Source: Methylococcaceae bacterium UBA2778
GTDB lineage: Bacteria; Pseudomonadota; Gammaproteobacteria; Methylococcales; UBA2778
Direction: 5' to 3'
Length of the DNA stretch: 55,030 bases
NCBI GenBank assembly: GCA_002352385.1
Contig: DEII01000063.1
Span: 13,575 to 68,604 of the forward strand
Part shown: positions 14,990 through 37,960 of the stretch, in pieces
Numbering within the stretch: position 1 is the first letter of the stretch
How the letters are laid out: each line of letters opens with the position of its first letter
Program-made: the position numbers and the translations under genes
The notes under the pieces: generated by a model
What the model saw: only the letters and a program-made list of their open reading frames with translations
What the model was told of the DNA's origin: nothing
Database searches by the model: none

Positions 14990-15260
14990 TATTTACCGCG
15001 GGCTCCGACGTTTACCCTCGTTCGCATGCTCCTGCGTGGGAATGCATCCTGGCACGATAGCCGTAGGGTACGCACCACCTACCTTATCCCTCGGTCAGCC
15101 GGGTAGCGTTGGAACGAGAACCTGCATAGGGCGAGCTTTGCAGACGATCTGCCATCGTGCGCCGCATTATGGCGGAACCCTTCGCGTTCCGCCCTACGCT
15201 CCCGCCGGTTAACGTAATGGCAGTGACGCTCCTGCGTGGAGATACAGGCCGGAGTGATAC
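14990..15260. repeat. cluster of REP-like dispersed repeat units in a 0.5-kb gene-free gap
   Basis: GCTCCTGCGTGGGAATGCATCC (about 15029) and GCTCCTGCGTGGAGATACAGG (about 15227). GTAGGGTACGCACCACCTAC at 15063-15082. CTTCGCGTTCCGCCCTACG at 15180-15198 is the exact reverse complement of 29792-29810. Confidence 0.55.
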
Positions 15261-15382
15261 AAATGGTTCATGCTTGCTTTTGTTGCCGACTTCAACGTAT
15301 TCTTTGGTGGGAAAAAGCCTGCCTAAACCTGCCGTTCATTGCTGTCGACTTCAGACACAGGGAAAAGCCTGTGCACAAAACC

Positions 15383-16582
15383 ATGTGGAAAAAAATCGAG
15401 GAACTTGTTCTCAGCCCGAAAATCGAAGAGGCCTCTTTGCGAACGCAGCTGCAAAAAGCAAAAGCGGGTATTCCGACTCCGGTTTTTTGGCTGCTTGGCA
15501 AAACCCAGTCCGGCAAGAGTTCGATTATCCGAGCGCTGACAGGCGACAGCCGGGCGCAGATCGGAGATGGAATGCGTCCTGTGACCCGGACCGCCTACCT
15601 GTATGATTTTCCGAATGAGGAGAGCTGCTTGATCAAGTTTCTGGATACGCGGGGGCTCGGCGAAACGGATTACGATCCGGCGGAGGACATGAGCACATTT
15701 CAAGGCCAGGCGCACGTATTGGTGGTTGTCATGAAGGCAATGGATCATGCGCAGGGGAACGTGATGAAATCGGTCCGAACGATTCTGAAAAAACAACCCC
15801 ATTGGCCGGTGATCGTCGTTCAAACCTGCCTTCATGAAGGCTATTCGGACCCTGCTATGAACCACGTCTTGCCGTACCCGTACGACGACCCGAATCGAGC
15901 TGACTCCGTTCCGACCGATCTGAGACGCGCCCTGGATCATCAACGCCGATTGCTCAAAGGCATCGACGCCCGCTTCGTCGCTGTCGATTTCGCCCTGAAA
16001 GAGGACGGCTATGACCCCGTGCTGTACGGGCTGGATGCATTTTGGCGGACGATTGAAGAGACGCTGCCCCACGGCATCGTATCGGTATTGCGCGATGCTC
16101 ACGACATTCGATCGGAACTGGAGGATTTTTGCAGCAAAGCGGCATTCTCTCACATTCTCGCCTACGCGATCCTGAGCGGCGCTGCCGGCGCGATTCCGCT
16201 GCCGCTCATCGATATCCCCCTGGTGACCCTGATCCAGGCGAAGCTGTTTCATAGCATCGCTTCGATTTACAACTATCCGTTGAACCGGGAGCGAATCAAA
16301 GCGATCGGCAGCGCACTGGGTCTGTCGCTGGCGGCCAATATCGGCCGGCGGCAGCTGGTCAAACTGATTCCAGTCTATGGCAGCGGGGCGTCATCGCTGC
16401 TCACAGCTGCGTCGACCTACGCGCTGGGAAAGACCCTGGGCGCTTATATGCTGCGCAGCCGGCAGGGAGGAGCCGTCGACCCGAAGATATTTCAAGAGAT
16501 CTATGCGGCCGAATTCGAGCAGGGGCGCCGGCTCCTTAAACGCTACCTCGGCGATTTCAGCGAACGCAAATCCGCTCCATGA
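15383..16582 (+). CDS. P-loop GTPase with C-terminal DUF697-like membrane-hairpin domain
   Basis: 399 aa from the ATG at 15383 (internal to track ORF 15236..16582). G1 LLGKTQSGKSS and G3 DTRGLGE. The C-terminal hydrophobic region AILSGAAGAIPLPLIDIPLV...LIPVYGSGASSLLTAASTYALG resembles YcjF/DUF697. Confidence 0.65.
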   Translation: MWKKIEELVLSPKIEEASLRTQLQKAKAGIPTPVFWLLGKTQSGKSSIIRALTGDSRAQIGDGMRPVTRTAYLYDFPNEESCLIKFLDTRGLGETDYDPAEDMSTFQGQAHVLVVVMKAMDHAQGNVMKSVRTILKKQPHWPVIVVQTCLHEGYSDPAMNHVLPYPYDDPNRADSVPTDLRRALDHQRRLLKGIDARFVAVDFALKEDGYDPVLYGLDAFWRTIEETLPHGIVSVLRDAHDIRSELEDFCSKAAFSHILAYAILSGAAGAIPLPLIDIPLVTLIQAKLFHSIASIYNYPLNRERIKAIGSALGLSLAANIGRRQLVKLIPVYGSGASSLLTAASTYALGKTLGAYMLRSRQGGAVDPKIFQEIYAAEFEQGRRLLKRYLGDFSERKSAP

Positions 16583-18117
16583 AACGCACCATCGTCTGGA
16601 TTGCGTCGCTGGCTCTGGCCGCCGCTCCCTTCCTGTTGCTGCTGGTGGCCGGCTTATATTGGCTGTGGAGCCAGCAGCTAATCTTATCGTGGGCAGCGGT
16701 TACGGCGGTATCGGGGCTCATGGCCTGGCTGGTCAACCGCGCTCTGAAGCGAAAGCGCGTTCCGCCGGAAACGCTGCAGGTCGATCCATCCACGCTCTGG
16801 TCCGGCAAAGGCATCGAGGCATGGGAAAAAGTCGAAGCAATCGCCCAGCGGTTGCACGATCGGCAGCCCGATCTGGAAAGCATCGACTTTTACACCGAGA
16901 CTTTGAGGGAGGTCATGGAGACGGTCGCTCTGCATTTCCATCCGGAGCGAAAAAACGCTCTGCTCGAGCTGCGCGTTCCCGATGCGTTGAGAGTCATCGA
17001 GCTGCTCTCCCGGGATCTGCGCACCACCTTTTCCGAAAACGTCCCCGGCAGCCATCTGCTGACGGTCAATGACATCGTTCGCGGCCACCGCTTGGCGGCA
17101 CACGGCGGCGCCCTGTTGAAGCTCTACCGCATCGTCGCCGCTGGCGTCGACCCGATCTCAGCCGCCGTGCGCGAATTGGGATTCCTGGCCAGCGACAGTG
17201 TGCTCTCCGACTCGACCAAAGCGGTGAAAAAATGGCTGGTGGACGCCTATGTCAAAAAGATCGGCTACTACGCCATCGAACTGTACAGCGACCGCCTCGT
17301 ACTGGATGACGACGTTCCTATGAGGGCAACCAATGCCTCCCGCGTCGATATGGAAAAAGCCGAACAGCAGGCGCAGCGGCTGCAGGAAGAACCGCTGCGG
17401 ATTCTGGTGATCGGCCAGGTCAACGCCGGCAAGTCGAGCCTCATCAATGCCCTGTCTGCGGAAATGCAAGCGATTGTCGACGTCGTTCCTCAGACCGAAG
17501 CGATTCATCCCTACGTGTTGGATAAAAACAGCTTGACGAAAGCCGTCATACTGGACACGCTAGGCTATCAAGAGACCGAACAGCCCCTGCGAGCGTTGAA
17601 ATCGCTGCTCGATGCGATTCCGCGAACCGATCTGATTCTGCTGGTGCGTTCGGCCATCAACGTTGCCGGCGGTGCCGACAAAGCAGTGCTCGATCAGTTG
17701 TCGACCCGCTTCAGGGAGGCGACGGAGGAAGCGCCGCCTCCGGTCATTGTCGCACTCTCCCACATCGATCGGCTGCGGCCGTTCCGGGAGTGGTCGCCCC
17801 CGTACGATGTCGTCGCTCCGGACAGCGCCAAGGCGCAATCGATCAAAGCGGCAATGGAGATCACCGCGCAGCAGTTGGGGATCGACATCGACCGGATCGT
17901 TCCGTTGAACCTCAAAAGTGGTCAGCTGTACAATGTGGAAGAGGGGCTGCTTCCAGCCATATTGCAAAATCTGGAATCTGCGACTCGATTGAAATACCTT
18001 CGCTGTCTGGAAGAGTATAAGAGTCGATCGCAGTGGCAGGCGCTGTGGCAGCAGTCAAAAAACGCCGGCCGCTTTATCGCTCGCGAGGGGTTCCGCTGGA
18101 TCGGCAGCCGTTCTTGA
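16579..18117 (+). CDS. membrane-anchored P-loop GTPase (two N-terminal TM helices)
   Basis: 512 aa. ATGA overlap with the upstream GTPase. TM segments at IVWIASLALAAAPFLLLLVAGLYWLW and LSWAAVTAVSGLMAWLV. G1 VIGQVNAGKSSLINAL, G3 DTLGYQE, and a G4-like SHID. Confidence 0.65.
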   Translation: MKRTIVWIASLALAAAPFLLLLVAGLYWLWSQQLILSWAAVTAVSGLMAWLVNRALKRKRVPPETLQVDPSTLWSGKGIEAWEKVEAIAQRLHDRQPDLESIDFYTETLREVMETVALHFHPERKNALLELRVPDALRVIELLSRDLRTTFSENVPGSHLLTVNDIVRGHRLAAHGGALLKLYRIVAAGVDPISAAVRELGFLASDSVLSDSTKAVKKWLVDAYVKKIGYYAIELYSDRLVLDDDVPMRATNASRVDMEKAEQQAQRLQEEPLRILVIGQVNAGKSSLINALSAEMQAIVDVVPQTEAIHPYVLDKNSLTKAVILDTLGYQETEQPLRALKSLLDAIPRTDLILLVRSAINVAGGADKAVLDQLSTRFREATEEAPPPVIVALSHIDRLRPFREWSPPYDVVAPDSAKAQSIKAAMEITAQQLGIDIDRIVPLNLKSGQLYNVEEGLLPAILQNLESATRLKYLRCLEEYKSRSQWQALWQQSKNAGRFIAREGFRWIGSRS

Positions 18118-18188
18118 AACTGTGTTGGGCGCGCTGCGCCGTACCTGATCCACACCCCCCAGGAGACGATATGATGAAAAGAGGAGAA

Positions 18189-18590
18189 ATGATGCGAGTT
18201 TTTATCTGCTTGGGCCTGCTTCTAGCCGCTTTCGATGTTTCTGCCATCGAATGCAAATCGGAAGGGAATCAGCTGGAGTTGAATCAATGCGCGCTCGATG
18301 ATTTTGAAAAGGCGGATCGTGCATTGAATGAGACCTATCAGACCCTGATAAAACAGATGCAGGATGACAAGACCTATATCGACGCGCTGCGCGAGGCGCA
18401 GCGGGCGTGGATTCGGTTTCGCGATGCGGAGTTAAAGGCGATGTTTTCCTGTGACGAGGAGGATGTCAGGGTCTGCTGGGGCAGTATGTATAATTTGCTC
18501 TATCTGAATGCCAAGACCGAGCTAACGCAGGCGCGCGCCAAGCGTCTGCAGCGGTTTATCGAGCATGGCCGCAATGTTTGGGTGGAATAG
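18189..18590 (+). CDS. DUF1311 (LprI / lysozyme-inhibitor-like) secreted protein
   Basis: MMRVFICLGLLLAAFDVSA signal. C..EGNQLELNQCA...ADRALNETYQ...AQRAWIRFRDAE is the DUF1311 pattern. Start is uncertain (18171, 18189 or 18192). Confidence 0.7.
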   Translation: MMRVFICLGLLLAAFDVSAIECKSEGNQLELNQCALDDFEKADRALNETYQTLIKQMQDDKTYIDALREAQRAWIRFRDAELKAMFSCDEEDVRVCWGSMYNLLYLNAKTELTQARAKRLQRFIEHGRNVWVE

Positions 18591-18849
18591 TTCCGCGACA
18601 TGCCGCGATCGCTTGACTGGCTGGCGCTCTTACCAGCCGGTTCCGTCGGTGGCGGGCAGCCTGGATTGGCTCGCGGTGTATCGGCGGGGTCTCGGTCTTG
18701 GTTCTGGTTCACCCACCGTGCGCGGCGGCTCCGAAGAGATCAATACACATCCCGCTGATAGATACCGCTTCTGCGCCTGCATCTGTTGGCCGGATCGGCT
18801 CGCCGCGGTGGCTTGAGTGGCTAAAGTCGGGTTTAACGTTACGCTTGGA

Positions 18850-19653
18850 TTACGAGTGATAAAGTAATATCTCGCCCTTATTCAACTCAATCGAATCGCC
18901 GCACCAGCGTTGATAGCTTCCGGTCAACCAGGCATCATCGATTACAAGCCCTAACTCGCGCAAATAATTGAGATAAAAACGCAGGAAGATGGGTTGATAG
19001 GTACAGGAATAACTGAACGTCGGGAGCATCTGTGCCGGTTTCATCGAAACGATCGAACCTCGTTTCATACCGGCGCCGGTTCGAATACCCATTTCTCCCA
19101 ATACGAAAATGGATCCCGCCAACATGTTAAGGCCGGTGAAATCGCCGCTGTTGCCGCCGATTGCGATCAATCCGCGCCTTAATCCACCACCGGCTTCATT
19201 CTTGCAATTACCGTGGACTATGATTTCACCGCCCTGCATTCCAACTTCGGCGCCACGTACGACGCACCCGACCATATGACCGGCATTGCCTTTGATGATA
19301 ATGCTGCCGCCCTTCATGTCTTCCCCGACCCAGTCTTGCGCATTGCCATTGACGACGATCCGGCCGCCGCTCATACCGACGCCGAGATGGCCGCTCACAT
19401 TGCCGTCAATGATCATCTGACCACCGGACATACCTTTCCCGAGCAGCTTGACGAAAGATAGGTCCCCTTCGAGCTCGAGCCTGCCGTTCATTTTCCCGGT
19501 CACGGTAAAGAATTCGCCCAGGGCTTCCTTTCGATTTCCATGATGCACCGTCAGAGCGGATACTTCGGCTTCCGTTAGACCATTCAGCGAAGTGGGACCG
19601 ATGACTTCAGCTTCCAGCGGGACTTCGGGTGCGGTGTGTAGTGTTAATTTCAT
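18850..19653 (-). CDS. fhcC: formylmethanofuran dehydrogenase subunit C / FhcC
   Basis: 267 aa. Repeated beta-helix units G..GxxMxGGxIxVxGNA (GKGMSGGQMIIDGN, GVGMSGGRIVVNGNA, GEDMKGGSIIIKGNA, MQGGEIIVHGN). Confidence 0.9.
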   Translation of the reverse strand: MKLTLHTAPEVPLEAEVIGPTSLNGLTEAEVSALTVHHGNRKEALGEFFTVTGKMNGRLELEGDLSFVKLLGKGMSGGQMIIDGNVSGHLGVGMSGGRIVVNGNAQDWVGEDMKGGSIIIKGNAGHMVGCVVRGAEVGMQGGEIIVHGNCKNEAGGGLRRGLIAIGGNSGDFTGLNMLAGSIFVLGEMGIRTGAGMKRGSIVSMKPAQMLPTFSYSCTYQPIFLRFYLNYLRELGLVIDDAWLTGSYQRWCGDSIELNKGEILLYHS

Positions 19654-19724
19654 AATGGTTTGCCGGCGTGCCGTGCGCTAAAGGATGTTTTTCGAAGGAT
19701 TCAGGAACAGGACGTCTGCCTGCT

Positions 19725-20636
19725 TCAACTCTGCAGCAAAGCGTGCAACTTGATCTGATACTGGCCCAGGTTGCCACCGTAATTCCCCGCTGTTATCTGC
19801 ACCAGGCCCTCGCCCGCGGCAGCATGCATGCCCTGTCGCATTGCCTCACCGACCGACGCTTCCTCCAGGCCGTCGACGACGATCTCGAGCACACAACCGA
19901 TTTCTTCACTCAATTCCGTTTTTGCGGCACTTCCTCGCAACGTGGGGCAATAGGCGTCATTGGTCGAAGCGGGTAATGCTTTGTATCTGGAGCCTGGCTT
20001 GCTACCGCTTCGAACGATCCCTCCGGGAAAAGGCAGAATTACTCCGGGGACCTTCCGCATGGCGCGGGCCGCTACTTCCGCCGCACTCAGCGTGGAAGAC
20101 ATGTCTTTTCCCAGCAGCAGCAGATTGCCGCCGCCAACCGCCGCTTGCACGCCGAACGCATCATCGATCAAAAACTCACCTTCCATCACCGGGATACGCC
20201 ATATTTTCCGACCATTGAGTACCTTACTGGCTTGATAGCCGTCACCGAAATAGCGCAGCTTTTCGCCAACGGCAACGTGCTCTTGCGCCCCTTCCAGGCC
20301 GTTGAAACAAGCCGTCGTCGGGCAGGTCATCACGCTTTGACCAATCCGTTCGGCGAGCCGATTACCGACGCCTTTCGCCGAGCCGGCAAACAACAGAACA
20401 CTGACGCCCGGCCTTTGATCGGGCGTTTCGTCGGCAGACAACGCTGTTTCGATGCCCATTTCGCATCGACAACCGATGACCGATGTCGCGAACCCGGTTG
20501 CCGACTGCGCGGCCGTCATCGCCCATTGATCGGTTTCCGCGGTAATAATGACCCGCGCCGCTGACATTTTAAATGCTTCCGCAAAGGTATCGGTCACTTC
20601 GGTCGTTTGTATATGCATTTTTTTTATTGCAGACAT
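19725..20636 (-). CDS. fhcD: formylmethanofuran:tetrahydromethanopterin N-formyltransferase (Ftr / FhcD)
   Basis: 303 aa. N-terminus ...VTDTFAEAFKMSAARVIITAETDQWA is typical of Ftr. Located inside the fwd/fhc operon. Confidence 0.9.
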   Translation of the reverse strand: MSAIKKMHIQTTEVTDTFAEAFKMSAARVIITAETDQWAMTAAQSATGFATSVIGCRCEMGIETALSADETPDQRPGVSVLLFAGSAKGVGNRLAERIGQSVMTCPTTACFNGLEGAQEHVAVGEKLRYFGDGYQASKVLNGRKIWRIPVMEGEFLIDDAFGVQAAVGGGNLLLLGKDMSSTLSAAEVAARAMRKVPGVILPFPGGIVRSGSKPGSRYKALPASTNDAYCPTLRGSAAKTELSEEIGCVLEIVVDGLEEASVGEAMRQGMHAAAGEGLVQITAGNYGGNLGQYQIKLHALLQS

Positions 20637-20686
20637 CTGCGAATCAGGAAGAAAACCTCTCGGGACTTGGACATTCTATTGTCTTC

Positions 20687-20763
20687 CGGTAGGGCGGGCA
20701 CGCTTTTCTGCCCGCTACGTCGCCGGTGGATTTGGTGTGCAAAAAAGCGTGCCCACCCTACGA
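20687..20763. repeat. REP-like inverted repeat inside the fwd/fhc operon
   Basis: GTAGGGCGGGCACGCTTTT (20689-20707) pairs with AAAAGCGTGCCCACCCTAC (20743-20761) at 18/19. Same GTAGGGCGG core as the 15.2-kb and 29.8-kb units. Confidence 0.65.
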
Positions 20764-20783
20764 TTCAAGACAGTCGGTTCCGG

Positions 20784-22430
20784 TCAGGTCACCGGGATAT
20801 TCGCAATAACCTCTGTGTTGTGCACATGCGTATCGGAAACCGGATAATTGTCGAATTGAACGCTGTAGTAATCGTCGAAGAACGAACGAATTTCGTTCTC
20901 GATACTTTTATCATATTCCGGCGCAATGTGGAATATACGGCCGCTGTGATCCGCGCAGAACTCGTGATTTTTGATAAACAGGTGCCCGTCCTTGATGACG
21001 AACCGGGCGGCATTGAACATCTCTTCCTTGTTGTCCATCTCGTCATAGATCGTGATGTCGGCATCGGCGCCCACACCGAGATGGCCTTTGTTCTTCAACC
21101 CCAGCAGTCGTGCAGGTCCCGCCCGGGTCACGATGGCAATCTCCTGCATGGAATATTCTCGGGTGAGGTCCGGCAAGCTGGTTTTTCCGATTGCTTTCTG
21201 ATTAACGCGGGTTGCCTCCTGGTTGCGGAAATCGCGATCCATCAGCAAGCGGATCAGGCGGGGATAGTTGAGGAATGAGCCGCCGTTGGGATGATCGGTG
21301 GAGAGCACCATTCGCCAGGGATCTTTCGCCATCAGAAATAATTCCAAACCGATCGCCCACTGCAACGTATGGGTATAAACGTGTTGCTGGTATTCGAACG
21401 GAATGATGCCGCACCCACTTTCGCATTCGGTATCCGCGTTGATCCATTTTCGCTCTTTCACGTGGCGCAGCATCCAGGCGAGCGGTGCATCCGCGGTCAT
21501 GCTGACCGATTTCCCGAACATGACTTGGCCTACATCGGCGCTGATATTCGGGTTGTCGTTGACGAAATCGGAGATTGCACGGGCTGCGGAAACCGGGTTC
21601 TTGCCAACCTCCCCGCCATAACTGTGGAACTGGATGTGAGTGATGTGGACCCTGCGTCCTTCGGCCGTACGCATGGTCTCGAGCGTCGTTTCATAGTTTC
21701 CGCTGTGGCCGAGGTTGTTGCAGTGGATATGCGCAGGATGCGGCAGGCCGAGATCGTTGGCGACGTCGATCAACGCCTTGATCACCTTTCTCGGGGTCAG
21801 GTCGAAGGCATGAATCTTCTGGTCCAGCGCCGTGATGTTGGCGTTCTTCTTGCCTTTCCACATCTCATCGGCACCGGGATTCACCAATTTGATCGTGTAC
21901 GCCTTGGTTGCTTTCACCCACCAGGCGACGGCTTCGCGGAATTCTTCCATTCGCCCCTTTTCTAACAGCTGATGCAGCATGCTGTTATTGCCCATCAGGA
22001 CATAGTACCCCTTATCGATGATGGGGGTATCTTCCAGCTCCTCCAAAACGTGCCGAGCGCTCAATGGGGGCACCGCCGCTTCCATGGCAGTCGTGTAGCC
22101 CATGGTGGCGTAACGGTAGCCGGTGGCGAACGTGGAGGGCACGACGCCACCCGACCCCGACCGGGTATATTCGGTGCCGGGATGGGGATCATAACGATGG
22201 TCTTCCGGCTGAAACTTCCTGGCCAGGTTGACTTTGGACCCGGCGATATGGCAGTGTATATCCACACCGCCGGGCATGACCACCATGCCGTGAGCATCTA
22301 TCGTCGGCGCATCCTCCGGCACACTGTCGACAATTTTTCCATCCAGTATGCAGACATCCCGCACCTGGCCATCGATATCGTTGGCGGGATCGTACACTTT
22401 CCCATTGACAATGCGCAGCGTTGAGGACAT
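20784..22430 (-). CDS. fhcA: formylmethanofuran dehydrogenase subunit A / FhcA (amidohydrolase)
   Basis: 548 aa. Metal-binding GGVDIHCHIAG (HxH) and a full-length FwdA-like amidohydrolase. Confidence 0.9.
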   Translation of the reverse strand: MSSTLRIVNGKVYDPANDIDGQVRDVCILDGKIVDSVPEDAPTIDAHGMVVMPGGVDIHCHIAGSKVNLARKFQPEDHRYDPHPGTEYTRSGSGGVVPSTFATGYRYATMGYTTAMEAAVPPLSARHVLEELEDTPIIDKGYYVLMGNNSMLHQLLEKGRMEEFREAVAWWVKATKAYTIKLVNPGADEMWKGKKNANITALDQKIHAFDLTPRKVIKALIDVANDLGLPHPAHIHCNNLGHSGNYETTLETMRTAEGRRVHITHIQFHSYGGEVGKNPVSAARAISDFVNDNPNISADVGQVMFGKSVSMTADAPLAWMLRHVKERKWINADTECESGCGIIPFEYQQHVYTHTLQWAIGLELFLMAKDPWRMVLSTDHPNGGSFLNYPRLIRLLMDRDFRNQEATRVNQKAIGKTSLPDLTREYSMQEIAIVTRAGPARLLGLKNKGHLGVGADADITIYDEMDNKEEMFNAARFVIKDGHLFIKNHEFCADHSGRIFHIAPEYDKSIENEIRSFFDDYYSVQFDNYPVSDTHVHNTEVIANIPVT

Positions 22431-22493
22431 CGGGCTAACCTTTTTTCATTAACAGAGCACGGACCGTTTTGTATTGTGCCTATCCTTCGATCG

Positions 22494-23822
22494 CTAATGG
22501 GCTTTCAGTTCGCGAATGCGTTCCGTCAGCGGCTTCAAAATGTCCAGATCGCTGGGAAAAGGCGACTCGAAGGCCGGCCGCAAGGGGATGGGAATATCGT
22601 CCATCCGGTAAACCGTGCCGGGCACGTTGATGCCGTAGCAGGCCGTGGTAAGAGCGACACGCGCAATTTGGCTGGTCGGCGTGGGCTTGGGATCGAAGGA
22701 GATCACAGGGATCTTTTTCAGGTGTTCGATTGCCGGTCTGGCGAAGTTTGCGATTGGATCGCTGGCGATGATGCAGGCGGCATCGGCTTCGCCGCGGACC
22801 AGAATATCGGTGGTGGTGAACTCGCCCGGTTCATGCCGGGGATAACCGCGATTGAAATTGACACCGAAGGGATAACCGGTCTGCCACGACATGACGGTAT
22901 CGGCACCGGTCACATTGCCGTGTCCACGCGCCGGTTTGACGACGAAGTGGGTGTGCTCGTTGAGATCGGCAGCCAGCAGGTGCAGCGCTCCGGTGTTGTA
23001 ATGGCGGCCGCGGGTCATGGTTAAACCCATTCCGAAAAAGAGGATGCCGTAATTGCAGGACATTAGTCGGTGGGCGACATCCTCGATGGTGGCCATGGGT
23101 ACGCCGGTCTGCTCTTCAATGGATGGGTTCAGCCTGCGACCTCTGGAAATCGATCTCAGGGCCGACAACAGTTCGTAGTCACTGCCCGGTTTCAATTGTA
23201 CAAACAGGTCGGCAATATTCGTCGTCGACGTGGAGCGTATATCGACGTTGATGACCGTGCGGTCTTTCCTGCCGTTAGGGATATACATTCCTTTCGGCAT
23301 AACCGTAAAATGCGTGGACAGTCGGGGGTGACAGTCGGTTGGATTGCAGCCCCAGTAAACAACCATATCCGCGCGGTTTTTGACCTCACCCAGTGTCGTC
23401 GTCGGCTCGCCGACGCCTTGAAGCCCCATGCCGGTCGGTCCGTGGCAGACGGACGAGGTGCTGTCGATGTTTGCGGACAGGTAATCGGCCATCGCCACCG
23501 CTTGCCGCTGCGCTTCGCTGGTGGTGTCGCTGAGACCGTAGATGATCGGAAAACGGGCATTGACGAGTATCTGTGCCGCCTCTTCGATGGCGTCCTCCAG
23601 ACTGGCCTCTTTACCGTCGATCAGCGCGACGGGACGACTTTCGTCCACGGAATGCTCACTGAACCAGGCTTTACCCAAAACACAGGCATTCTTGGATTTG
23701 ATAATGCATTTTTCATCCAAATCCACCGTCAATTCCATATCGTCGCACACGCATCCGCAAAACGTGCAGGTGGCGTTTTTAATGATTGTGGTGTTTTTTT
23801 CCGTTGCAGTGTTTTTATCCAT
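22494..23822 (-). CDS. fhcB: formylmethanofuran dehydrogenase subunit B / FhcB (molybdopterin-oxidoreductase fold)
   Basis: Start taken at MDKNT (ATG 23822), which overlaps the fwdD stop by 8 nt. N-terminal CTFCGCVCDD...C..(7)..C is a CX2CX3C..C Fe-S-type motif. SSVCHGPT is analogous to the (Sec/Cys)-His active site of formate dehydrogenases and FwdB. Confidence 0.85.
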   Translation of the reverse strand: MDKNTATEKNTTIIKNATCTFCGCVCDDMELTVDLDEKCIIKSKNACVLGKAWFSEHSVDESRPVALIDGKEASLEDAIEEAAQILVNARFPIIYGLSDTTSEAQRQAVAMADYLSANIDSTSSVCHGPTGMGLQGVGEPTTTLGEVKNRADMVVYWGCNPTDCHPRLSTHFTVMPKGMYIPNGRKDRTVINVDIRSTSTTNIADLFVQLKPGSDYELLSALRSISRGRRLNPSIEEQTGVPMATIEDVAHRLMSCNYGILFFGMGLTMTRGRHYNTGALHLLAADLNEHTHFVVKPARGHGNVTGADTVMSWQTGYPFGVNFNRGYPRHEPGEFTTTDILVRGEADAACIIASDPIANFARPAIEHLKKIPVISFDPKPTPTSQIARVALTTACYGINVPGTVYRMDDIPIPLRPAFESPFPSDLDILKPLTERIRELKAH

Positions 23823-24189
23823 CGTCTTCCTCCGGGGCCAAAGGCCCTTCGATTTCAACTACCAGATGTTTGGATGCGGGCATACCGGTACCGGCCGTGT
23901 CGCCATCGACCATCAACGCCGAGGTGGTCGGCCCGTATGGCATGAAGATCAAGCCCGAGGAGTTGTCCGTGACCTTGATTTTTCGCGGTATACAGGAAAC
24001 GACGACCGCATGGGTGCCCACACGCAGACGAACCCGGTCGCCTTTCTTCAGCCCGAGGCGATCCATGTCCTCCTGCTTGATTTCAGCCGTGGAAGTCGTT
24101 TCCTTATAGGCATCCTTGAGCTTGCCTGCATTCAGGGTCGTGCCTTGCTTGGTGGTCCGCATGGGAACCAGGATCATGGTTTCCGTCAT
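23815..24189 (-). CDS. fwdD: formylmethanofuran dehydrogenase subunit D-like protein (molybdopterin dinucleotide-binding beta-barrel)
   Basis: About 124 aa. ...RTTKQGTTLNAGK...IKQEDMDRLGLKKGDRVRLRVGTHAVVV...IFMPYGP...TAGTGMPASK..VVEIE parallels archaeal FwdD as I remember it. Start is uncertain (24189 or 24177; the track gives 24222). Confidence 0.7.
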   Translation of the reverse strand: MTETMILVPMRTTKQGTTLNAGKLKDAYKETTSTAEIKQEDMDRLGLKKGDRVRLRVGTHAVVVSCIPRKIKVTDNSSGLIFMPYGPTTSALMVDGDTAGTGMPASKHLVVEIEGPLAPEEDDG

Positions 24190-24344
24190 TGGCTTGATAA
24201 ATAGTGAGTGAAACAGCGACAAACGTCGAGATGAACTGCTTGAATCATCCCATCTTACCAGTTTCGTGTAAATGTCCGGTCCAATAGGCTGTCCCGGACC
24301 TTATCTTGGCCTTTACGCCCGGGCGTTACACCGTCCATAACCGA

Positions 24345-24668
24345 TCATCTCTCCAACAATTCAAGCTTGCCTTCTTTACCGTTCCATTCATCCGCATCGG
24401 GAAGGGGATCCTTCTGCTCGGTAATGACCGGCCAGATTTGTGACAACTCCGCGTTCAGTTCGAGAAAGTTTTCTTGGCCTTCCGGTATCTCGTCTTCGGA
24501 ATAGATTGCATTTGCCGGACACACCGGCTCGCACAGTGTGCAATCGATGCATTCGTCCGGGTCGATCACCAGGGTGTTCGGCCCTTCGTGAAAACAATCG
24601 ACAGGACACGGGTCCACGCAATCGGTATATTTACATTTGATACACTCTTCGCCGACAATAAAAGTCAT
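24345..24668 (-). CDS. fdxA: 7Fe ([3Fe-4S][4Fe-4S]) ferredoxin, Azotobacter FdxA type
   Basis: 107 aa. [31 protein letters not shown]...[16 protein letters not shown]. Confidence 0.85.
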
Positions 24669-24801
24669 AACATTTTCCTTATCATCTAAATGGACGCACG
24701 TTTCATTTTCGACCTTCTCCCGGAAGGAGGAAGAGGGTCGCTCAAATGCTTAGGTTGTCGTATTAAATAACAAACGGTCACGTATTGCAAAGCGGTTGAC
24801 T

Positions 24802-27800
24802 TCACACATGAGGAAGGTCCGCCGCATCGGTCATCATGCCTAAAATGCCGACACTCTGCTTTTCGAGAACGTTGTTCTGGCGCAGGCGCGAATTCAGGAA
24901 GCTGAAGTCCACTTCGTCCATACCTTGATCCTGATTGAAGCAGGAGAACACGAACGTCTCCTCGCCGGTCTCGGGATCCACATGGCGCTGCAAACACTGA
25001 GCGCAGACCTTTTTCATCATGCACTGCATCGGCGAGTTGATGGAAGCGACAGCCACGTGCTCCTTCAAATACGGCTGCAGCAGCGACGGGTCGTGACGCG
25101 CAGCCTTGACCGCCGCCATCATGCGATCGGAACCGATGGCAACCAGATGTTCGGCCTCGTCCAGCGGAAAAAGCTGCGCCCCGAACTCACCATTGGAGTA
25201 GGCGATCATCGCCTGCACGATGTTGCCACGGAAATGGGCGTCGCGGGGGCGTTGCGGCTCGATTTGGTCACCCATGTCGGTGGAAAAGATGACCTGGTCG
25301 GTGGCCTCCTCGACCTCATCGCGTTTAAACAGGTCCGCACCATTCTTGTAACCGGCGAAATAGAGCACCTTGGAGCCCGCCTCTTTGCAGGCTTTGGCGA
25401 TGCTGAAGAGCACGGCATTGCCCAAACCGCCGCCGAGAAGAACTACATTGGCGTTCGACGGGATCTCCGTCGGCGCCCCGGTCGGCCCCATGCAGACAAC
25501 TTCTTCACCCGGCTGCAGATAGGCACACAGGTCGGAAGAACCGCCCATCTCCAATATGATCAAGGAGAGCAGGCCCTGCTCTTTGTCCACCCAGGCGCCG
25601 GTGAGGGCCACCCCTTCCATAGCCATTCTGAACCCTTTTATTTTGGGTGCATTGGCATCGAAGTTCTGCAGGCGGTAGAACTGGCCGGGGTGGAACTTCC
25701 GGGCCTGGTACGGGGCGCGCAGAACGACCTCGGTAATTGTCGAGGTCAGGCGCTCCACTCGAACGACCCGCGCCTTCAGCACATCATCCAGACGCGCCAC
25801 AAATTCCGTGTGCGCCCTGTCTCTTTGTCGCTGACCGGCAGGATCGAGGCCGCTGATCTCCGACCGAAAAATATCCACGACCTTCGGATAGCCGTTGCGC
25901 GCGGAGGCCATGGCTTTAACGACGTTGCCGGCATAAGCCGGATGGTTGTCGCCGTAATAGGACACCGTCAACCCTTCTTTATTATAGGAGGTGAAAAATG
26001 ATGCAGCAGGATCTTTGTCGTCCGCCAACTTGATCTCACCGTTGCTCTTAGCCGCATTGAACGGCTTGAAAAACTTGCCGTCGATGTCGAAGGTGTCGGG
26101 GTGCTCCAATTCGTATACGATGTTGGGGCTGGTGCCCGCCGCCACCATCAGCGAGCGGCAGGGCAGTTCCACTTCGTCATCCGATCCCTTGTAGCGGGCG
26201 CGCAACGTTTTGATGCTGCCATGCTCGTCGGCGACCGCTTCGGTCGGCGAGATGGTTTCGTCGAAGTAGATGCCCTCCTCCAATGCTTTGATGACCTCTT
26301 CGTGGTTCAACCGGTAGGCGGGGGATTCCTGAACGGTGCGGCGGTAGGCAAGCGTCACCCCGCCCCAGCCCCGAACCAGCTTGATCATGTCCGGCTCCCG
26401 CCCTTCGGTCGCGGCTCGTTCTTTCTCGGCGACGACCGCCTTGCCATGGGCAATGAATTCCTCATAGATGGTCTTCTCTTCCCCGACCAACTTCTCCAGG
26501 AATGCGTCCAGCCGGCCCTCGGCCTTCAGGATCGCGCTGCGTTTGAGCACTCGTTCCACCATCGCCGGGTAGTAGGCCATCAGCTCGGTGGCGGTATCGA
26601 TTGCCGTGAGCCCACCACCCAGAACCACCGCCGGCATCCGCACCTGTAGGTTGGCGAGAGAATCGTCCTTTGAAGCCCCGGTCAACTGCAACGCCATGAG
26701 GAAGTCGCTGGCCATGCGCACGCCGCGCAGGAGATTATTCTTCATCGGCACGATGGTGGGCTTGCCCGCTCCGGTGGCGATGGCGACGTGGTCGAAGCCG
26801 AGTTCGGCTGCGTCTTCCAGCGTCAGCGTGCCGCCGAAGCGCACGCCGCCATAGGCGGTAAACCCGGGCTTGCGAAGCAGAGTAAGGTATAGCAGGCGCA
26901 GGAAGTTCTTATCCCAGCGCACGGTGATGCCGTACTCGGATACCCCACCAAAACCGTCCAGGATACGCTGATCCAGCGGCTGGATGAAATCCTGCCAACT
27001 CGGCAGCGGCGCAAACCCCTCGCCAACCTGCTCTCCCGGCAAAGGCTCCAGCTTGAGACCGTCCACCGCAACGACGGCGAAGCCCTCGCTGGTCAGGAAG
27101 TGAGCCAAAGTATAACCGGCGGGCCCCAGTCCAACCACCAAAACCCGCTTGCCGTTCAGGGGGAGTTGATAAGGTCGACGAATATTCAAAGGGTTCCAAC
27201 GGGTCAGCAGGCCATAAACTTCCATACCCCAAGGCATATCTAATACATCCGTAAGAATACCCGTTTCGATCTGCGGAATGTTGACCGGATCCTGCTTCTG
27301 AAAGATGCAGGCTTTCATGCAATCGTTGCAGATGCGATGCCCGGTACCCGGACACATCGGGTTGTTGATCATCACTGTCGCCAGCCCGGCGAGCGCATCG
27401 CCCTGCTGCCGCAACAACTGGGCCTCCGAGATGTGCTCATCCAGCGGGCAGCCGTCCAGCACGATGCCCACGGGGTTGGTCTTGGTGTTGCCTTTCTTGT
27501 CCTTGACCCCTTTGTAGCAGGAATCTCGCTCCTGGTTGTGACAGAAAATGCACAGATCAAGCTCGCCAATCATCTCAGTGTGCTCATAGCGGTGGTCGGT
27601 CAACTCGAAACCGACCCGATGGCGGTAAATCGCTTCGGAGCCCTGAAAAAAGTGAGGCTTGTCGGGGTGCGGATATTCGCGCTCAACCAGGTTGCGAAAA
27701 TCGACTTTTTGCTGCAGGCGGAAGATCTCCCAGTGGCGGGTGGCGGCCGGACGAGGCTTGCTGTCAACCTGGTAGGCGCTCCAGATTTGAACTTTTCGGA

Positions 27801-28452
27801 TAAGATCGCCCACCGCCGTTGCCAGGGCCTCAAGATCAGCGCCGGTCGGAAATGTCGAATCCATGCTCTGCAGGCGATCTACGGCTGTGCCGGCCTCTTC
27901 AGGGAATCCTCCCCCGTCCGCCTTGGCGGAATCAATCGCGTTCTCAAGTGAAATTAGGGCCGTCACCATTCGGGCAAAGGCTTGTTCTTCGCTCCCCTCT
28001 TTTTGGGGTTCACCCAAAGTCCGTGTGAGTTCCGTCACCTTCCGGTCCAGTGCGGTGATGTCGGCGCCCTCCCGGTCTGCCGGTTTCAACCCCTTGACCA
28101 CCCGCTTGCGTACGAAGTCCCGCCGCACCGCAAGCATGGTGTCCAATTCACGCGTCTTGGCTTCAACCTCTCGGCAGGCTTGGTCCAGACCGAACATGGT
28201 GCTCAAAAAGCGGGACAGGTGGGGACCGACGGCCTCCGTTACCCAGCTCTCGTCTTGCCGGGTGGGATTAGCCTGTTCGAGGAGTTCCCGGTATCGGCGT
28301 CCAACTTCCGGATCCCGCTCAGCCAAATCGTCGGAAAAACGTTCCTGCAGGAGACGGAGCCTTTCAGGTTGGAACAAGTCGCGATAGCTGAATCCCTCAA
28401 TCCCGAGGGCCAATGGCTCGCCGTTCTTGTTATCAGCAAGTGGTTCTGTCAT
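24802..28452 (-). CDS. 1216-aa multidomain flavoprotein: about 300-aa helical N-terminal region + GltD/NfnB/SudA-like Fe-S/FAD/NAD(P)H module + PyrK/NfnA/SudB-like FAD/[2Fe-2S] module
   Basis: Cys clusters CIFCHNQERDSC, GCPLDEHISE and CPGTGHRICNDCMKACIF. Dinucleotide folds VLVVGLGPAGYTLAHFL and VVLGGGLTAIDTATE. C-terminal FNR-like barrel (RFHPGQFYRL..., VVLLGGGLGNAVLF). Terminal Cys motif CMMKKVCAQCLQ...FSC resembles PyrK. Confidence 0.75.
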   Translation of the reverse strand: MTEPLADNKNGEPLALGIEGFSYRDLFQPERLRLLQERFSDDLAERDPEVGRRYRELLEQANPTRQDESWVTEAVGPHLSRFLSTMFGLDQACREVEAKTRELDTMLAVRRDFVRKRVVKGLKPADREGADITALDRKVTELTRTLGEPQKEGSEEQAFARMVTALISLENAIDSAKADGGGFPEEAGTAVDRLQSMDSTFPTGADLEALATAVGDLIRKVQIWSAYQVDSKPRPAATRHWEIFRLQQKVDFRNLVEREYPHPDKPHFFQGSEAIYRHRVGFELTDHRYEHTEMIGELDLCIFCHNQERDSCYKGVKDKKGNTKTNPVGIVLDGCPLDEHISEAQLLRQQGDALAGLATVMINNPMCPGTGHRICNDCMKACIFQKQDPVNIPQIETGILTDVLDMPWGMEVYGLLTRWNPLNIRRPYQLPLNGKRVLVVGLGPAGYTLAHFLTSEGFAVVAVDGLKLEPLPGEQVGEGFAPLPSWQDFIQPLDQRILDGFGGVSEYGITVRWDKNFLRLLYLTLLRKPGFTAYGGVRFGGTLTLEDAAELGFDHVAIATGAGKPTIVPMKNNLLRGVRMASDFLMALQLTGASKDDSLANLQVRMPAVVLGGGLTAIDTATELMAYYPAMVERVLKRSAILKAEGRLDAFLEKLVGEEKTIYEEFIAHGKAVVAEKERAATEGREPDMIKLVRGWGGVTLAYRRTVQESPAYRLNHEEVIKALEEGIYFDETISPTEAVADEHGSIKTLRARYKGSDDEVELPCRSLMVAAGTSPNIVYELEHPDTFDIDGKFFKPFNAAKSNGEIKLADDKDPAASFFTSYNKEGLTVSYYGDNHPAYAGNVVKAMASARNGYPKVVDIFRSEISGLDPAGQRQRDRAHTEFVARLDDVLKARVVRVERLTSTITEVVLRAPYQARKFHPGQFYRLQNFDANAPKIKGFRMAMEGVALTGAWVDKEQGLLSLIILEMGGSSDLCAYLQPGEEVVCMGPTGAPTEIPSNANVVLLGGGLGNAVLFSIAKACKEAGSKVLYFAGYKNGADLFKRDEVEEATDQVIFSTDMGDQIEPQRPRDAHFRGNIVQAMIAYSNGEFGAQLFPLDEAEHLVAIGSDRMMAAVKAARHDPSLLQPYLKEHVAVASINSPMQCMMKKVCAQCLQRHVDPETGEETFVFSCFNQDQGMDEVDFSFLNSRLRQNNVLEKQSVGILGMMTDAADLPHV

Positions 28453-28811
28453 AGGATGTTTCCTCTTTTTCTTCTCAATGCGTGCGACGTTTATGGATCA
28501 ATCATCAGGATAGAGTCACCTCGGCAGCCTTTCCGTTTAATACGACCAAGCGCCCGTATCCTAACACCGGCGGTTCAGTGCGATCAACCATTGCGGCCCC
28601 GATGCCGACGTTCGGATAAGCGTGGCGCTGCTTGGTCGCCCGTTTATCTCTGTTGCCTACCACGATCCCGTTCAGCAGGCGATCATGGTTCGTTTGCTTG
28701 AAAGGATTCTCCATTTCGGCATTTATAACACAACCGCGGCGCCTTACTCAAACTCAATTGAAACCCAGTGATCACTTGGTTGGCCGGGCGGCTTGCAGGC
28801 AAGCGGTTTCC

Positions 28812-29516
28812 TCAGCCTTGCCGGTGCTGCGCGCGGTGTCGAACATCGACACCTTTAACAAGATAGATGACGTATTCGGCCAGGTGTTCGGTATGCTCGG
28901 ACAAGCCTTCCAGCGCCTTGATCACCAGCGTCAGATTGATGGCGTGTTCGGCGTTGTTGGCATCTTCGCGTGCGAAGGCGGTCAGACGCGCCAGGCTCGA
29001 CTGAAAATCGGAGCCGCGCTCCCGGTTGCCGTTGAGCAGGGCTTCGGCAATGGTGGCATCCAGCGTGTCCAACGCATCCAGCGCCTCCTCGAGCAGCTTC
29101 AGTATGCCGGTCGCCATCGTATCGACATCCCGAAATACGCTGCCGCCTGAGTGAATTTCCTCTCGATTGTGGATGCTCAAAGCGATCTGGGCGATTCTTA
29201 CCGCCTCGTCGCCGATCCGCTCGAGATCGGTGATCACCTTGGAAAAGGCCATGGTGACTCTGAGATCGCGCCCGATCGGTCCGTGCCTGCTGATCAGCGA
29301 TATGATCGAGTCGTCCGCCGTCAGTTCCAGTGCATCAAGCCGGGGTTCGCGGGTGATCACGTTGCTGGCGGCTCTGAGATCGCCGTGGCGGAAGGCCGCC
29401 AAAGCCAAGCGGCTCTGATCCAGGGCAAGGCCGCCCATTTCAACCATCAGCAGATGGATGTGGTTCAGTTCACCGTCATAGGTGTGATCGGCGTGCCCTT
29501 CGAGTGAAAATGCCAT
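28812..29516 (-). CDS. phoU: phosphate signalling complex protein PhoU
   Basis: 234 aa. Two PhoU repeats with E/D..D...ERIGD-type motifs (TDLERIGDEAVRIA; EHLAEYVIYLV). Confidence 0.9.
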   Translation of the reverse strand: MAFSLEGHADHTYDGELNHIHLLMVEMGGLALDQSRLALAAFRHGDLRAASNVITREPRLDALELTADDSIISLISRHGPIGRDLRVTMAFSKVITDLERIGDEAVRIAQIALSIHNREEIHSGGSVFRDVDTMATGILKLLEEALDALDTLDATIAEALLNGNRERGSDFQSSLARLTAFAREDANNAEHAINLTLVIKALEGLSEHTEHLAEYVIYLVKGVDVRHRAQHRQG

Positions 29517-29791
29517 GGTATCGCTTGTCAGCCTGCATTGAAGCGGTCGGATCCAAACAGAGACCGGCCTGTGTCAAAAAGGTTAATCATAGCAGTGCGT
29601 GAAGATAGGATTCAATGCCGAGGCGTTTTTCCATGATCGAAGGTGATGCTGAAATAACCTCAAAAACCGATATCCGGGAGCTTGAGTATCGGCTCGTTAT
29701 CAAGCTTGGAACCACGATTGTCGTAGCAATCGGCATCGTGGCGACACATGTCAAACCGCTGTAGAAATCGATCACGGGCGTGTGACAGGTA

Positions 29792-29870
29792 CGTAGGGCG
29801 GAACGCGAAGCGGCCCGGGGCCGCACGCGTGATGGTGAGACGCCCGCTTCCGGCATCAGTCTGCCCGCAG
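29792..29870. repeat. REP-like unit in the phoU-pstB spacer
   Basis: CGTAGGGCGGAACGCGAAG (29792-29810) is the exact reverse complement of 15180-15198. A GC-rich imperfect palindrome follows. Confidence 0.5.
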
Positions 29871-29871
29871 G

Positions 29872-30765
29872 TCAGCCGAACCGCCCTGTAATATAATCTT
29901 CGGTCAACTGGTGCTGCGGGTTGCGGAATATCTGCTCGGTTTCCCCGACCTCGATCAGATCGCCGAGATGAAAATAGGCGGTACGGCGCGAGACCCGGGC
30001 GGCCTGCTGCATGGAGTGGGTGACGATGCAGATGGAAAACTGCTCCTCCAGCTCCATCATCAGCTCTTCCACTTTTGCCGTGGATATGGGGTCGAGCGCC
30101 GAACAGGGCTCGTCCATCAGGATCACCTCGGGTTCGACCGCGATGGTGCGGGCGATGCAGAGCCGCTGCTGCTGTCCGCCGGACAGTCCTGTTCCAGGCT
30201 GGTCGAGCCGATCCTTGACCTCGTCCCACAGTCCGGCCCGCTGCAGGCTGGTGACGATGATCTCTTCCAGTTCGGATTTGTGATCGTAGAGGCCGTGAAT
30301 TTTCGGACCGAATGCCACATTTTCCCAGATCGATTTCGGAAACGGATTGGGTTTCTGGAACACCATCCCCACCGAGGCGCGCAGCGGTACAACGTCGATC
30401 CTCGGATCGTTGATGTTCTCCTCGCCCATGAGGATCTCGCCGATGACGCGGCAGCCGTCGATGGTGTCGTTCATCCGGTTGAGGCACCGCAGGAACGTGC
30501 TTTTTCCGCAGCCGGAGGGCCCGATCATGGCGATGATCTCGTTTTCGCCGATGTCGAGCGACACATTGTTGATGGCCTGCTTGTCGTCGTAAAAGACATT
30601 GACGTCGGTACAGCGCATGCGCGGATTGTCAACCCGGCACTCGCCGATAGTGGTCCGATGTTCGCGGTGGACGCGCGCGGTCGATTGCGGGGTTGCGACC
30701 ACCTGAATTACTTCGGCTTGTTCGAACTGGTCAGCTTGACCGACTGCTTCTTTGGTTTCGTTCAT
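29872..30765 (-). CDS. pstB: phosphate ABC transporter ATP-binding protein PstB
   Basis: Walker [10 protein letters not shown], signature LSGGQQQRL, Walker B ILMDEP. I prefer the ATG at 30765 to the TTG at 30786. Confidence 0.9.
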
Positions 30766-31017
30766 ATCGTACAGTCCTGTTAACAAGGCGTTTCGGTGCC
30801 GGATTGAAATGCCTCCGAGGCGTATGCCGGCGCATTATAAAGGGTGCCCGATCATTAGACAAAGATGGGATGAAGAACAGGCGTGCAAAAGGGATCGCTG
30901 CGAGTCCGGAGCAAGCCGTTGCCCGCGCGAGCGCGTGGTTGATTCGACTGTTGCAGGCAGCGGCGCGGCCGGCTTCCCGGCGGCGGATGCTTTCCGGCGG
31001 TGCGCATTATCGATCCT

Positions 31018-33721: not shown

Positions 33722-34002
33722 CGGGTTGTTACCTTGACAAGAGACGAAAATAAAAAAGAACGCGACTATTCAGGCACTTTCCTCGGCCGTCGGGCAGTGG
33801 GGCATTTCTTCCGGAAGACGCTGCGAATACCTCCCTTGATGTTGGCGTCCATGCCAACCACACGTCCTCCTCGAATACTTCACTGCCGTCGCTCATGCGG
33901 CCAGCCGAAGATGTGCTGAATAGTCGCAAAAGAACAATAGCGCGGAACGGCCGCAGCCTGTGCCTGCCACGATCGTTCCAGGCTTGCGCTGCCGAGAGCG
34001 GT

Positions 34003-37750: not shown

Positions 37751-37960
37751 TCGAACATACGGGATCTTATTATTCGTGTTCTGCGTGGGGGATTGGGGCG
37801 CCTGCCGCTCACGAATGGCAGCAGGCGCCTCTCGCCGGTTCTGAAAGGGGCACAGGTCAATGCCCGGTGTATTTCTGAAGTCGGTGCCCATATAATATAG
37901 CCTATCCTCGAGAAGCTATTTGTGCGCCTGTATGACACTTCGTCATTTCTAGAAAAAGCT

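Follow-up and report, generated by a model that had tools for sequence, protein, structure and literature searches.

In a 55,030-nucleotide stretch of the genome of Methylococcaceae bacterium UBA2778 (contig DEII01000063.1, positions 13,575 to 68,604 of the forward strand; hereafter the window), seven open reading frames (ORFs), all on the minus strand within positions 18850-28452, encode in order a 1216-residue flavoprotein, the ferredoxin FdxA, FwdD, FwdB, FwdA, Ftr and FwdC. An earlier note on this DNA had described seven co-directional minus-strand genes here, and both the arrangement and its coordinates were confirmed. In textbook bacterial methylotrophy, the tetrahydromethanopterin (H4MPT) route ends with the cofactor-less complex Fhc, formate is released, and the low potential of the formyl-methanofuran (formyl-MFR)/CO2 couple is lost. 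From the sequences of the window and its relatives, we judge the chances somewhat better than even that FwdDBAC and Ftr constitute a redox-active bacterial formylmethanofuran dehydrogenase that is linked to ferredoxin and NAD(P) and ends in CO2.

The dehydrogenase-type core of the cluster

Hemmann et al. (2019, PMC6926001) presented FhcB as a mere scaffold, in which Cys118 is replaced by Ser, His119 and Arg288 are lost, the N-terminal [4Fe-4S] domain is missing and loops clash with the pterin, in a complex that has no FwdD. The window FwdB (22494-23822, minus strand, 442 residues), by sequence the molybdenum/tungsten (Mo/W)-bis-pterin subunit, aligns almost without gaps with the tungsten-containing FwdB of M. 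wolfeii (5T5I_B; 44% identity, E 1.8e-110), while its match to M. extorquens FhcB is weak (6S6Y_B; E 7e-17). It retains what FhcB has lost: an N-terminal [4Fe-4S] motif (C19, C22, C26 and C47, aligned with 5T5I_B), the metal-ligand pair Cys126-His127 within SVCHGP, and the catalytic Arg299 within RGHGNVTG. The FwdD subunit is also present. Its gene (23815-24189, minus strand, 124 residues) encodes the molybdopterin-dinucleotide-binding “domain IV” cap, which scores 29.6 against 26.8 with Pfam Molydop_binding and 63 with the NCBIfam FwdD profile NF042908, below the archaeal exception cut-off of 175, and matches the solved chains 2KI8, 8RJA_D, 9SFI_S and 5T5I_D at E values of 8e-13 to 1e-6. In the amidohydrolase subunit FwdA (20784-22430, minus strand, 548 residues), the dinuclear-site ligands (HxH, the carboxy-Lys, two His and the Asp) align with those of archaeal 5T5I_A. 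The cofactor-less scaffold B subunit lacking a D partner, which characterizes Fhc, is thus not what the window encodes. On every point that sequence can address, the predicted enzyme is of the dehydrogenase type, with an Fhc-style inclusion of ftr, and the suggestion of the earlier note that this is not a classical cofactor-free Fhc is borne out by the FwdB residues and the presence of FwdD.

Profile searches placed the four larger core proteins well above their cut-offs: FwdB matched TIGR03129 (513 bits versus 328), FwdA TIGR03121 (709 versus 393), the formylmethanofuran:H4MPT formyltransferase Ftr/FhcD TIGR03119 (one_C_fhcD; 426 versus 293) and the GXGXG beta-helix scaffold subunit FwdC TIGR03122 (247 versus 131). 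The ftr gene (19725 to 20618 or 20636, minus strand, 297-303 residues) lies between fwdA and fwdC (18850-19653, minus strand, 267 residues), as it does in Fhc operons. From the flavoprotein to fwdC, the intergenic distances are 133, 155, −8, 63, 147-165 and 71 bp. The negative value reflects the fwdB start, which on reading the DNA was placed at the ATG at 23822, overlapping the fwdD stop by 8 nt; a TTG start at 23858, implicit in the earlier note, is probably wrong, as the ATG fits the overlap. This stop/start overlap indicates translational coupling of fwdD and fwdB. The fwdD start was likewise corrected, to the ATG at 24189, whose context, ATGAC(A/G)GAAACC, is kept in five relatives. Independent assemblies of this organism carry the gene block too.

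Signals that might divide the cluster were also sought. No convincing terminator was found in any cluster gap, with counts near shuffle expectation, and the promoter scan, its counts otherwise near the same expectation, returned a single weak, putative sigma-70-like match in the fdxA-fwdD gap (24244-24272, minus strand; TTTACA-17-GATGAT with TG). Alignment of the fdxA-fwdD intergenic region from six relatives revealed no conserved regulatory element, the fwdD start context alone being kept, and an Rfam scan of positions 18000-29500 detected no riboswitch or other RNA family, the Moco riboswitch included.

Related loci and their redox partners

To place the cluster among its relatives, we used a one-genome-per-species scan with peptide patterns, from which the best 80 loci (numbered with an L below; 63-86% FwdB identity) were kept; window proteins were located in them by tblastn and all ORFs were clustered. 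The closest FwdB relatives, at 84-86% identity, belong to metagenome-assembled genomes (MAGs) labelled Methylococcaceae and Methylococcales, which identifies the host of the window as an uncultured gammaproteobacterium of the methanotroph type. The fwdD-B-A-ftr-C block is near-universal among the 80 loci. All seven key FwdB residues (the four Cys, the Cys-His pair and the Arg) are present in 81 of 81 primary copies of the clade, an invariance that holds within the clade and is in part ascertainment, because SVCHG formed part of one of the two scan patterns. In about 25 of the 80 species, a second set, B'-A'-ftr'-C', sits directly beside the intact fwdDBA-ftr-C block. Its B' paralogue is 24-34% identical and keeps the four iron-sulphur cysteines, while the Cys-His-Arg residues are lost and no D gene accompanies it; to judge from these sequences, the second set looks like an Fhc-like hydrolase standing beside the dehydrogenase. 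The coexistence of intact and degenerate forms argues that selection upholds the catalytic residues of the intact one. We found no paper noting such paired sets, which offer a natural before/after pair for the evolution of a hydrolase from a dehydrogenase. Examples lie at L019:16744-21306, L055:16879-21294, L075:15477-20158 and L005:9044-12000. In many loci an H4MPT island adjoins the block, comprising fae, mch, a ribofuranosylaminobenzene-phosphate synthase gene, ATP-grasp genes and a likely mtdB, for which no family match was obtained.

Cultured organisms with such a FwdB or FwdD were sought, and the named matches were all MAGs. A count of 149 FwdB homologues in bacteria was given by Wells et al., who did not analyse their function (PMC10100899), and according to a survey from 2016, Proteobacteria and Planctomycetes lack fwdD (PMC5020050). 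FwdD homologues from MAGs labelled Gammaproteobacteria and Gemmataceae (Planctomycetes) (P0128, P0188, P0194 and P0208) contradict the latter statement.

The window fdxA gene (24345-24668, minus strand) encodes a 107-residue 7Fe ([3Fe-4S]+[4Fe-4S]) ferredoxin of the Azotobacter ferredoxin I (FdI) type with a DUF3470 tail (81 bits). The motif CxxCxxxxCxxxCP...CxxCxxCxxxCP can be read from its sequence, it matches A. vinelandii FdI structures over its full length (E 1e-51), and it scores 164 against a cut-off of 135 with the profile NF045490 (FdxA_Protbact). Similar partners recur among the relatives: an FdxA-type ferredoxin of about 101 residues lies beside the intact block in 46 loci, and a 459-residue homologue of M. 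tuberculosis FprA (1LQT; E 1.5e-114; E 6e-99 to adrenodoxin reductase) in 45. When the count was restricted to the 50 loci flanked by no less than 3 kb upstream and 7 kb downstream, the ferredoxin was present in 35, FprA in 37 and either of them in 39, and all 22 flanked loci labelled Gammaproteobacteria had one or the other next to the block. Partner order varies. C-fdx-fprA is the order at most loci; fdx-fprA-D occurs in L061, L065 and L074; and fprA-D, with no separate ferredoxin ORF called, is found in the Gemmatimonadota loci L030, L031, L044, L054 and L058. Counting the flavoprotein-fdxA-D order of the window, there are at least four arrangements, spread over Gamma-, Alpha- and Betaproteobacteria and Gemmatimonadota labels. 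This recurrence of fwd block, ferredoxin and reductase in dozens of species takes the gene arrangement far beyond chance, and the survival of the linkage through rearrangement from Proteobacteria of all three classes to Gemmatimonadota is good evidence for a functional unit.

An FprA-type NADPH:ferredoxin reductase has been shown to transfer electrons to a 7Fe FdxA in vitro (PMC6208970). Genes for the archaeal polyferredoxins FwdF and FwdG were found neither in the window cluster nor in the related loci. Taken together, the reading of the enzyme as a ferredoxin-coupled dehydrogenase is well supported by genomics. The ferredoxin coupling proposed in the earlier note finds support in an FdxA synteny that is rearranged yet conserved in many species; the reductase that is widespread in these loci, by contrast, is FprA and not an Nfn-like protein.

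These features suggest a model in which Ftr would transfer the formyl group from formyl-H4MPT to methanofuran or methylofuran, and FwdA would hydrolyse the formyl carrier to formate inside the complex. Formate would then be oxidized to CO2 at the Mo/W-pterin site of FwdB-FwdD, and two electrons would exit by way of the [4Fe-4S] cluster of FwdB to the neighbouring 7Fe FdxA, which would replace the archaeal FwdG/FwdF polyferredoxins. From there they would pass to NAD(P)+ through a flavoprotein, of the FprA/adrenodoxin-reductase type in most relatives and the fused Nfn-like protein in the lineage of the window. The net conversion would be formyl-H4MPT to CO2 plus NAD(P)H with no free formate, beside or instead of hydrolytic Fhc and formate dehydrogenase. 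Within this scheme the gene content, the cofactor and catalytic motifs and the synteny are observed, and we infer the cofactor loading, the direction, the roles of ferredoxin as acceptor and of the flavoprotein as outlet, the specificity of the partners and confurcation of any kind. NAD(P)+ lies at −0.32 V, and the [3Fe-4S] cluster of FdI at roughly −0.42 V. With the formyl-MFR/CO2 couple at −0.53 V (PMC11656701), oxidation would be downhill at every step.

The fused flavoprotein and the rival explanations

The flavoprotein gene (24802-28452, minus strand) encodes three parts. The N-terminal ~290 residues match Pfam RP005_N, named after a Rickettsia protein. An NfnB/GltD-like module follows, with eight cysteines (301, 304, 312, 335, 367, 375, 378 and 382), an FAD-binding GxGxxG at 441 and an NAD(P)H-binding GGGxxA at 612, and then an NfnA/PyrK-like module (892-1175) with [2Fe-2S] cysteines 1144, 1150, 1153 and 1171 (Cx5Cx2Cx17C). 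In 50 homologues, seven of the eight N-terminal and all four C-terminal cysteines are invariant; Cys367 is the consensus residue and is not listed as conserved. Among NCBIfam profiles the protein scores highest with PRK06567, which describes a fusion of GltD-like and PyrK-like parts under the name “glutamate synthase beta/2-polyprenylphenol hydroxylase”; its 611 bits fall short of the cut-off of 1072. The notable sequence matches in the Protein Data Bank (PDB) were the large and small subunits of NfnI/NfnAB alone, at 1e-16 and 1e-14 over partial regions. An AlphaFold2 (AF2) model of residues 280-1216 (predicted local distance difference test score, pLDDT, 79.5; predicted template modelling score, pTM, 0.83) had as its top PDB folds the Nfn small subunit (TM-score 0.85-0.86) and large subunit (0.73-0.74), with glutamate synthase beta, PyrK and adrenodoxin reductase ranking below them. 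Given these motifs and best folds, “Nfn-like fusion” is a fair structural description, and in motifs and predicted fold the Nfn-like flavoprotein of the earlier note holds good.

Its genomic company is another matter. It belongs to a family with no fewer than 7985 members at E ≤ 1e-30, drawn from many phyla, Planctomycetes and Acidobacteria among them. At 78 of 83 homologue loci neither fdxA nor fwd lies within 6-8 kb; adjacency is limited to homologues of at least 72% identity and occurs at 0 of 78 loci at 62% or below, and three more distant contexts that were inspected are unrelated. On these counts we rejected a general association of the flavoprotein with fdxA or fwd. Within the Methylococcales-like clade of the window, flavoprotein-fdxA-fwdD adjacency is found in every member seen (the window, L004, L006, L084 and L087), the locus of the further member L005 being cut upstream of fdxA. 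As a unit, the seven-gene block of the earlier note is restricted to this narrow clade. L084 has the order flavoprotein-fdxA (107 aa)-D-B-A-ftr-C-fdx (101 aa)-fprA, L006 the same minus fprA, and the window has neither the downstream fdx nor fprA after fwdC. In L075, independently, a 47%-identical flavoprotein lies directly upstream of fwdD, a ferredoxin follows fwdC, and there is no fprA. This pattern suggests that the flavoprotein and FdxA can stand in for FprA and its ferredoxin. A plain replacement of FprA by the flavoprotein was set aside as too simple, L084 having both. In L006, an 84%-identical Methylococcales relative, pntA/pntB-like genes for a proton-translocating transhydrogenase (L006:2134-4703; N-terminal sequences only) lie immediately upstream of the flavoprotein gene.

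Whether the flavoprotein participates at all within the general scheme is roughly an even bet. It may be a general oxidoreductase outside the system, incidentally upstream of a redox-active Fwd core and ferredoxin, with FdxA re-oxidized by a distant FprA or Fpr, by biosynthetic ferredoxin consumers or by the respiratory chain. We regard this as unlikely, if still deserving of some weight: the size of the family and its unlinked loci, including the three unrelated contexts, favour it, as do the 133-bp gap and the separate promoter-like site in the window, and the FprA of L084 implies that the flavoprotein is not needed to complete the chain. Against it stand the adjacency kept across the clade, its independent recurrence in L075, and the loss of fprA and the downstream fdx, which tracks the presence of the flavoprotein. 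If the flavoprotein does belong, it might act as an Nfn-type confurcating transhydrogenase (reduced ferredoxin + NADH + 2 NADP+ giving oxidized ferredoxin + NAD+ + 2 NADPH) and so save the low potential of formyl-MFR oxidation, which we consider doubtful. Both Nfn modules are there, their cluster and flavin motifs complete and conserved, the Nfn subunits lead the fold matches, and the pntAB-like neighbours in L006 hint at a pyridine-nucleotide theme. Nevertheless, the sequence similarity to Nfn is low and covers partial domains, the chain is fused and carries insertions as well as an additional N-terminal domain of 290 residues, most members of the family are from aerobes, in which a low-potential donor is not obvious, and the usual partner elsewhere is the non-bifurcating FprA. 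The FdI [3Fe-4S] cluster, at about −0.42 V, would also leave little driving force. With the block limited to a narrow clade, FprA as the widespread partner and 78 of 83 loci unlinked, the energy-conserving confurcation proposed in the earlier note remains speculative.

Two further explanations would alter the chemistry itself. The enzyme could be a classical hydrolytic Fhc that has retained ancestral motifs and releases formate, with fdxA and the flavoprotein as unrelated neighbours. Cultured gammaproteobacterial methanotrophs are known to form formate, and databases label one relative “Fhc subunit B”. The order B-A-ftr(fhcD)-C, with Ftr inside the cluster, is moreover that of Fhc (PMC6926001). 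We nonetheless find this explanation quite improbable: the catalytic and cofactor residues and FwdD are conserved across 81 species and lost in the neighbouring Fhc-like paralogues, the linkage to ferredoxin and reductase has outlasted rearrangement, and the FhcB match is weak beside that to archaeal FwdB. Least probable, and to our minds very unlikely, is that the system runs in reverse, with ferredoxin reduced from NAD(P)H by Nfn-type bifurcation driving CO2 to formyl-MFR and so fixing it into H4MPT-bound C1 units, or that the ferredoxin and reductase serve only for reductive activation or protection of the Mo/W enzyme. In favour of this, archaeal Fwd works in both directions, reduced ferredoxin could in principle be made from NADPH by an Nfn-like enzyme, and the usual electron flow through FprA-type enzymes is from NADPH to ferredoxin (PMC6208970). 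Reduction of CO2 from NAD(P)H through FprA and a 7Fe ferredoxin would, however, be about 200 mV uphill and is unlikely without bifurcation, and the formaldehyde-oxidizing H4MPT island (fae, mtdB, mch) that adjoins the cluster at many loci would supply formyl-H4MPT oxidatively. The CO2-fixing entry that the earlier note had offered is therefore unlikely, and this direction too is speculative.

Several observations weigh against a ferredoxin- and NAD(P)-linked dehydrogenase. The relatives are all MAGs or metagenome contigs with partly unreliable taxon labels, and the scan that found them favoured SVCHG and kept the best 80. Methylococcaceae-labelled loci exist in which an intact FwdB has no adjacent fwdD, ferredoxin or reductase: L008, L010, L011, L012, L037 and L078 have all seven FwdB residues and no partners adjoining. 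In two others with this label, L068 (~9363) and L077 (~9443), fwdD lies just upstream on the opposite strand. In the window, the 133- and 155-bp gaps and the promoter-like site before fwdD permit independent transcription, fdxA passes the housekeeping FdxA equivalog cut-off and could equally be the general ferredoxin of the cell instead of a dedicated partner, and the flavoprotein is unlinked at most of its loci. Formate formation by cultured methanotrophs points the same way, and archaeal Fwd enzymes are oxygen-sensitive. Overall, the interpretation given in the earlier note is partly supported.

Setting, significance and known systems

The 55-kb window contains no second fwd or fhc copy and no other C1, H4MPT, Mo-cofactor or tungstate-transport gene; around the cluster lie pstSCAB-phoU and genes for GTPases, peptidases and the like. 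The operon pstS-pstC-pstA-pstB-phoU (28812-35064, minus strand) adjoins the flavoprotein gene on its upstream side and on the same strand; its PstC and PstA, of 460 and 456 residues, are of unusual length and have DUF3708/DUF3333 N-terminal regions. Downstream of and convergent with the fwd cluster are an LprI-like gene (18171-18590) and an overlapping GTPase pair of 448 and 512 residues (15236-18117, plus strand; MMR_HSR1, faint Dynamin_N). Further away are two genes resembling di-haem cytochrome c peroxidases of the MbnH/MauG family (7459-9375 and 10978-12006, both plus strand), the first with an N-terminal extension of about 290 residues, and a 598-residue ORF (36095-37891, minus strand) with a cyclic-nucleotide-binding-like region and a rhodanese domain, for which no family scored above cut-off.

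Should the proposed dehydrogenase be real, many environmental methane and methanol oxidizers, including relatives of atmospheric-methane oxidizers, would have a second exit from the H4MPT pathway, leading directly to CO2 with electrons passed to ferredoxin and NAD(P)+. Metabolic models would shift in formate excretion, NADPH supply and Mo/W requirement, and an apparently oxygen-compatible Fwd would be of interest for CO2-to-formyl catalysis. Confurcation, if it took place, would give an aerobe a flavin-based step that conserves energy. A still broader picture, which we hold to be improbable, has a large uncultured group of aerobic C1 oxidizers (Methylococcales-like Gammaproteobacteria, relatives of upland soil cluster gamma (USC-gamma), and Gemmatimonadota) sharing a Mo/W dehydrogenase end and a dedicated 7Fe ferredoxin, with a separate hydrolytic Fhc for assimilatory formate and, in the lineage of the window, a fused, oxygen-compatible Nfn-type confurcation yielding 2 NADPH from reduced ferredoxin and NADH. 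With a ferredoxin and a reductase as candidate partners, three or four recombinant proteins would suffice for a direct test of the hypothesis. The earlier note had called such a function new for a bacterial H4MPT pathway; the idea was partly anticipated (PMC7325909, PMC10100899). We found no paper linking bacterial Fwd with FdxA, FprA or Nfn-like genes.

Among known systems, the archaeal tungsten/molybdenum formylmethanofuran dehydrogenase FwdABCDFG (Fwd/Fmd, EC 1.2.7.12; M. wolfeii, PDB 5T5I) shares with the window the A, B, C and D subunits, at 44% identity for FwdB, together with the [4Fe-4S] motif, the Cys-His pair, the Arg, a separate FwdD cap and the FwdA ligands. The window cluster differs in having ftr inside it and neither the FwdF/FwdG polyferredoxins nor FwdE, and its host is an aerobic-type bacterium with a putative soluble 7Fe ferredoxin and NAD(P) flavoprotein and a likely oxidative direction. 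FhcABCD of Methylorubrum extorquens (PDB 6S6Y; PMC6926001) has the same B-A-D(ftr)-C order with the formyltransferase in the cluster, and a role at the end of bacterial H4MPT formaldehyde oxidation, but is missing the iron-sulphur domain, Cys-His, Arg and FwdD that the window has, and its B subunit is only a distant match (7e-17).

Closest in gene order is the fwdDBA-ftr-fwdC operon of Actinobacteria from the Hakuba serpentinite (Merino et al. 2020, PMC7325909), which is identical, likewise lacks fwdEFG, and encodes a FwdB reported to have the N-terminal [4Fe-4S] domain and Cys118. That organism, in contrast, is an anaerobe with the Wood-Ljungdahl pathway in which no H4MPT biosynthesis genes were seen, and its report described no ferredoxin or reductase partners and discussed a CO2-reducing role. 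The F420-reducing enzyme of Ca. Ethanoperedens (PMC11493965) offers an oxidatively run Fwd core in which the polyferredoxin output module has been swapped and electrons go to F420; it is archaeal and anaerobic, and its F420 reductase is wired into the complex, unlike a soluble ferredoxin and NAD(P) reductase.

The flavoprotein resembles the NADH-dependent ferredoxin:NADP+ oxidoreductase NfnAB/NfnI (PDB 4YLF, 5JCA) in both modules, in its cysteine and nucleotide-binding motifs and in predicted fold. It differs in being one polypeptide in large-then-small order, with the RP005_N domain and insertions, in its low sequence similarity, and in belonging to a family that is widespread in aerobes. Finally, mycobacterial FprA with its 7Fe FdxA, and A. 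vinelandii FdI, are matched by the 459-residue protein of the relatives and by the window FdxA. The mycobacterial pair feeds P450s from NADPH, whereas its counterparts here lie in an fwd cluster, FprA itself being absent from the window, and would run in the opposite sense, from ferredoxin to NADP+.

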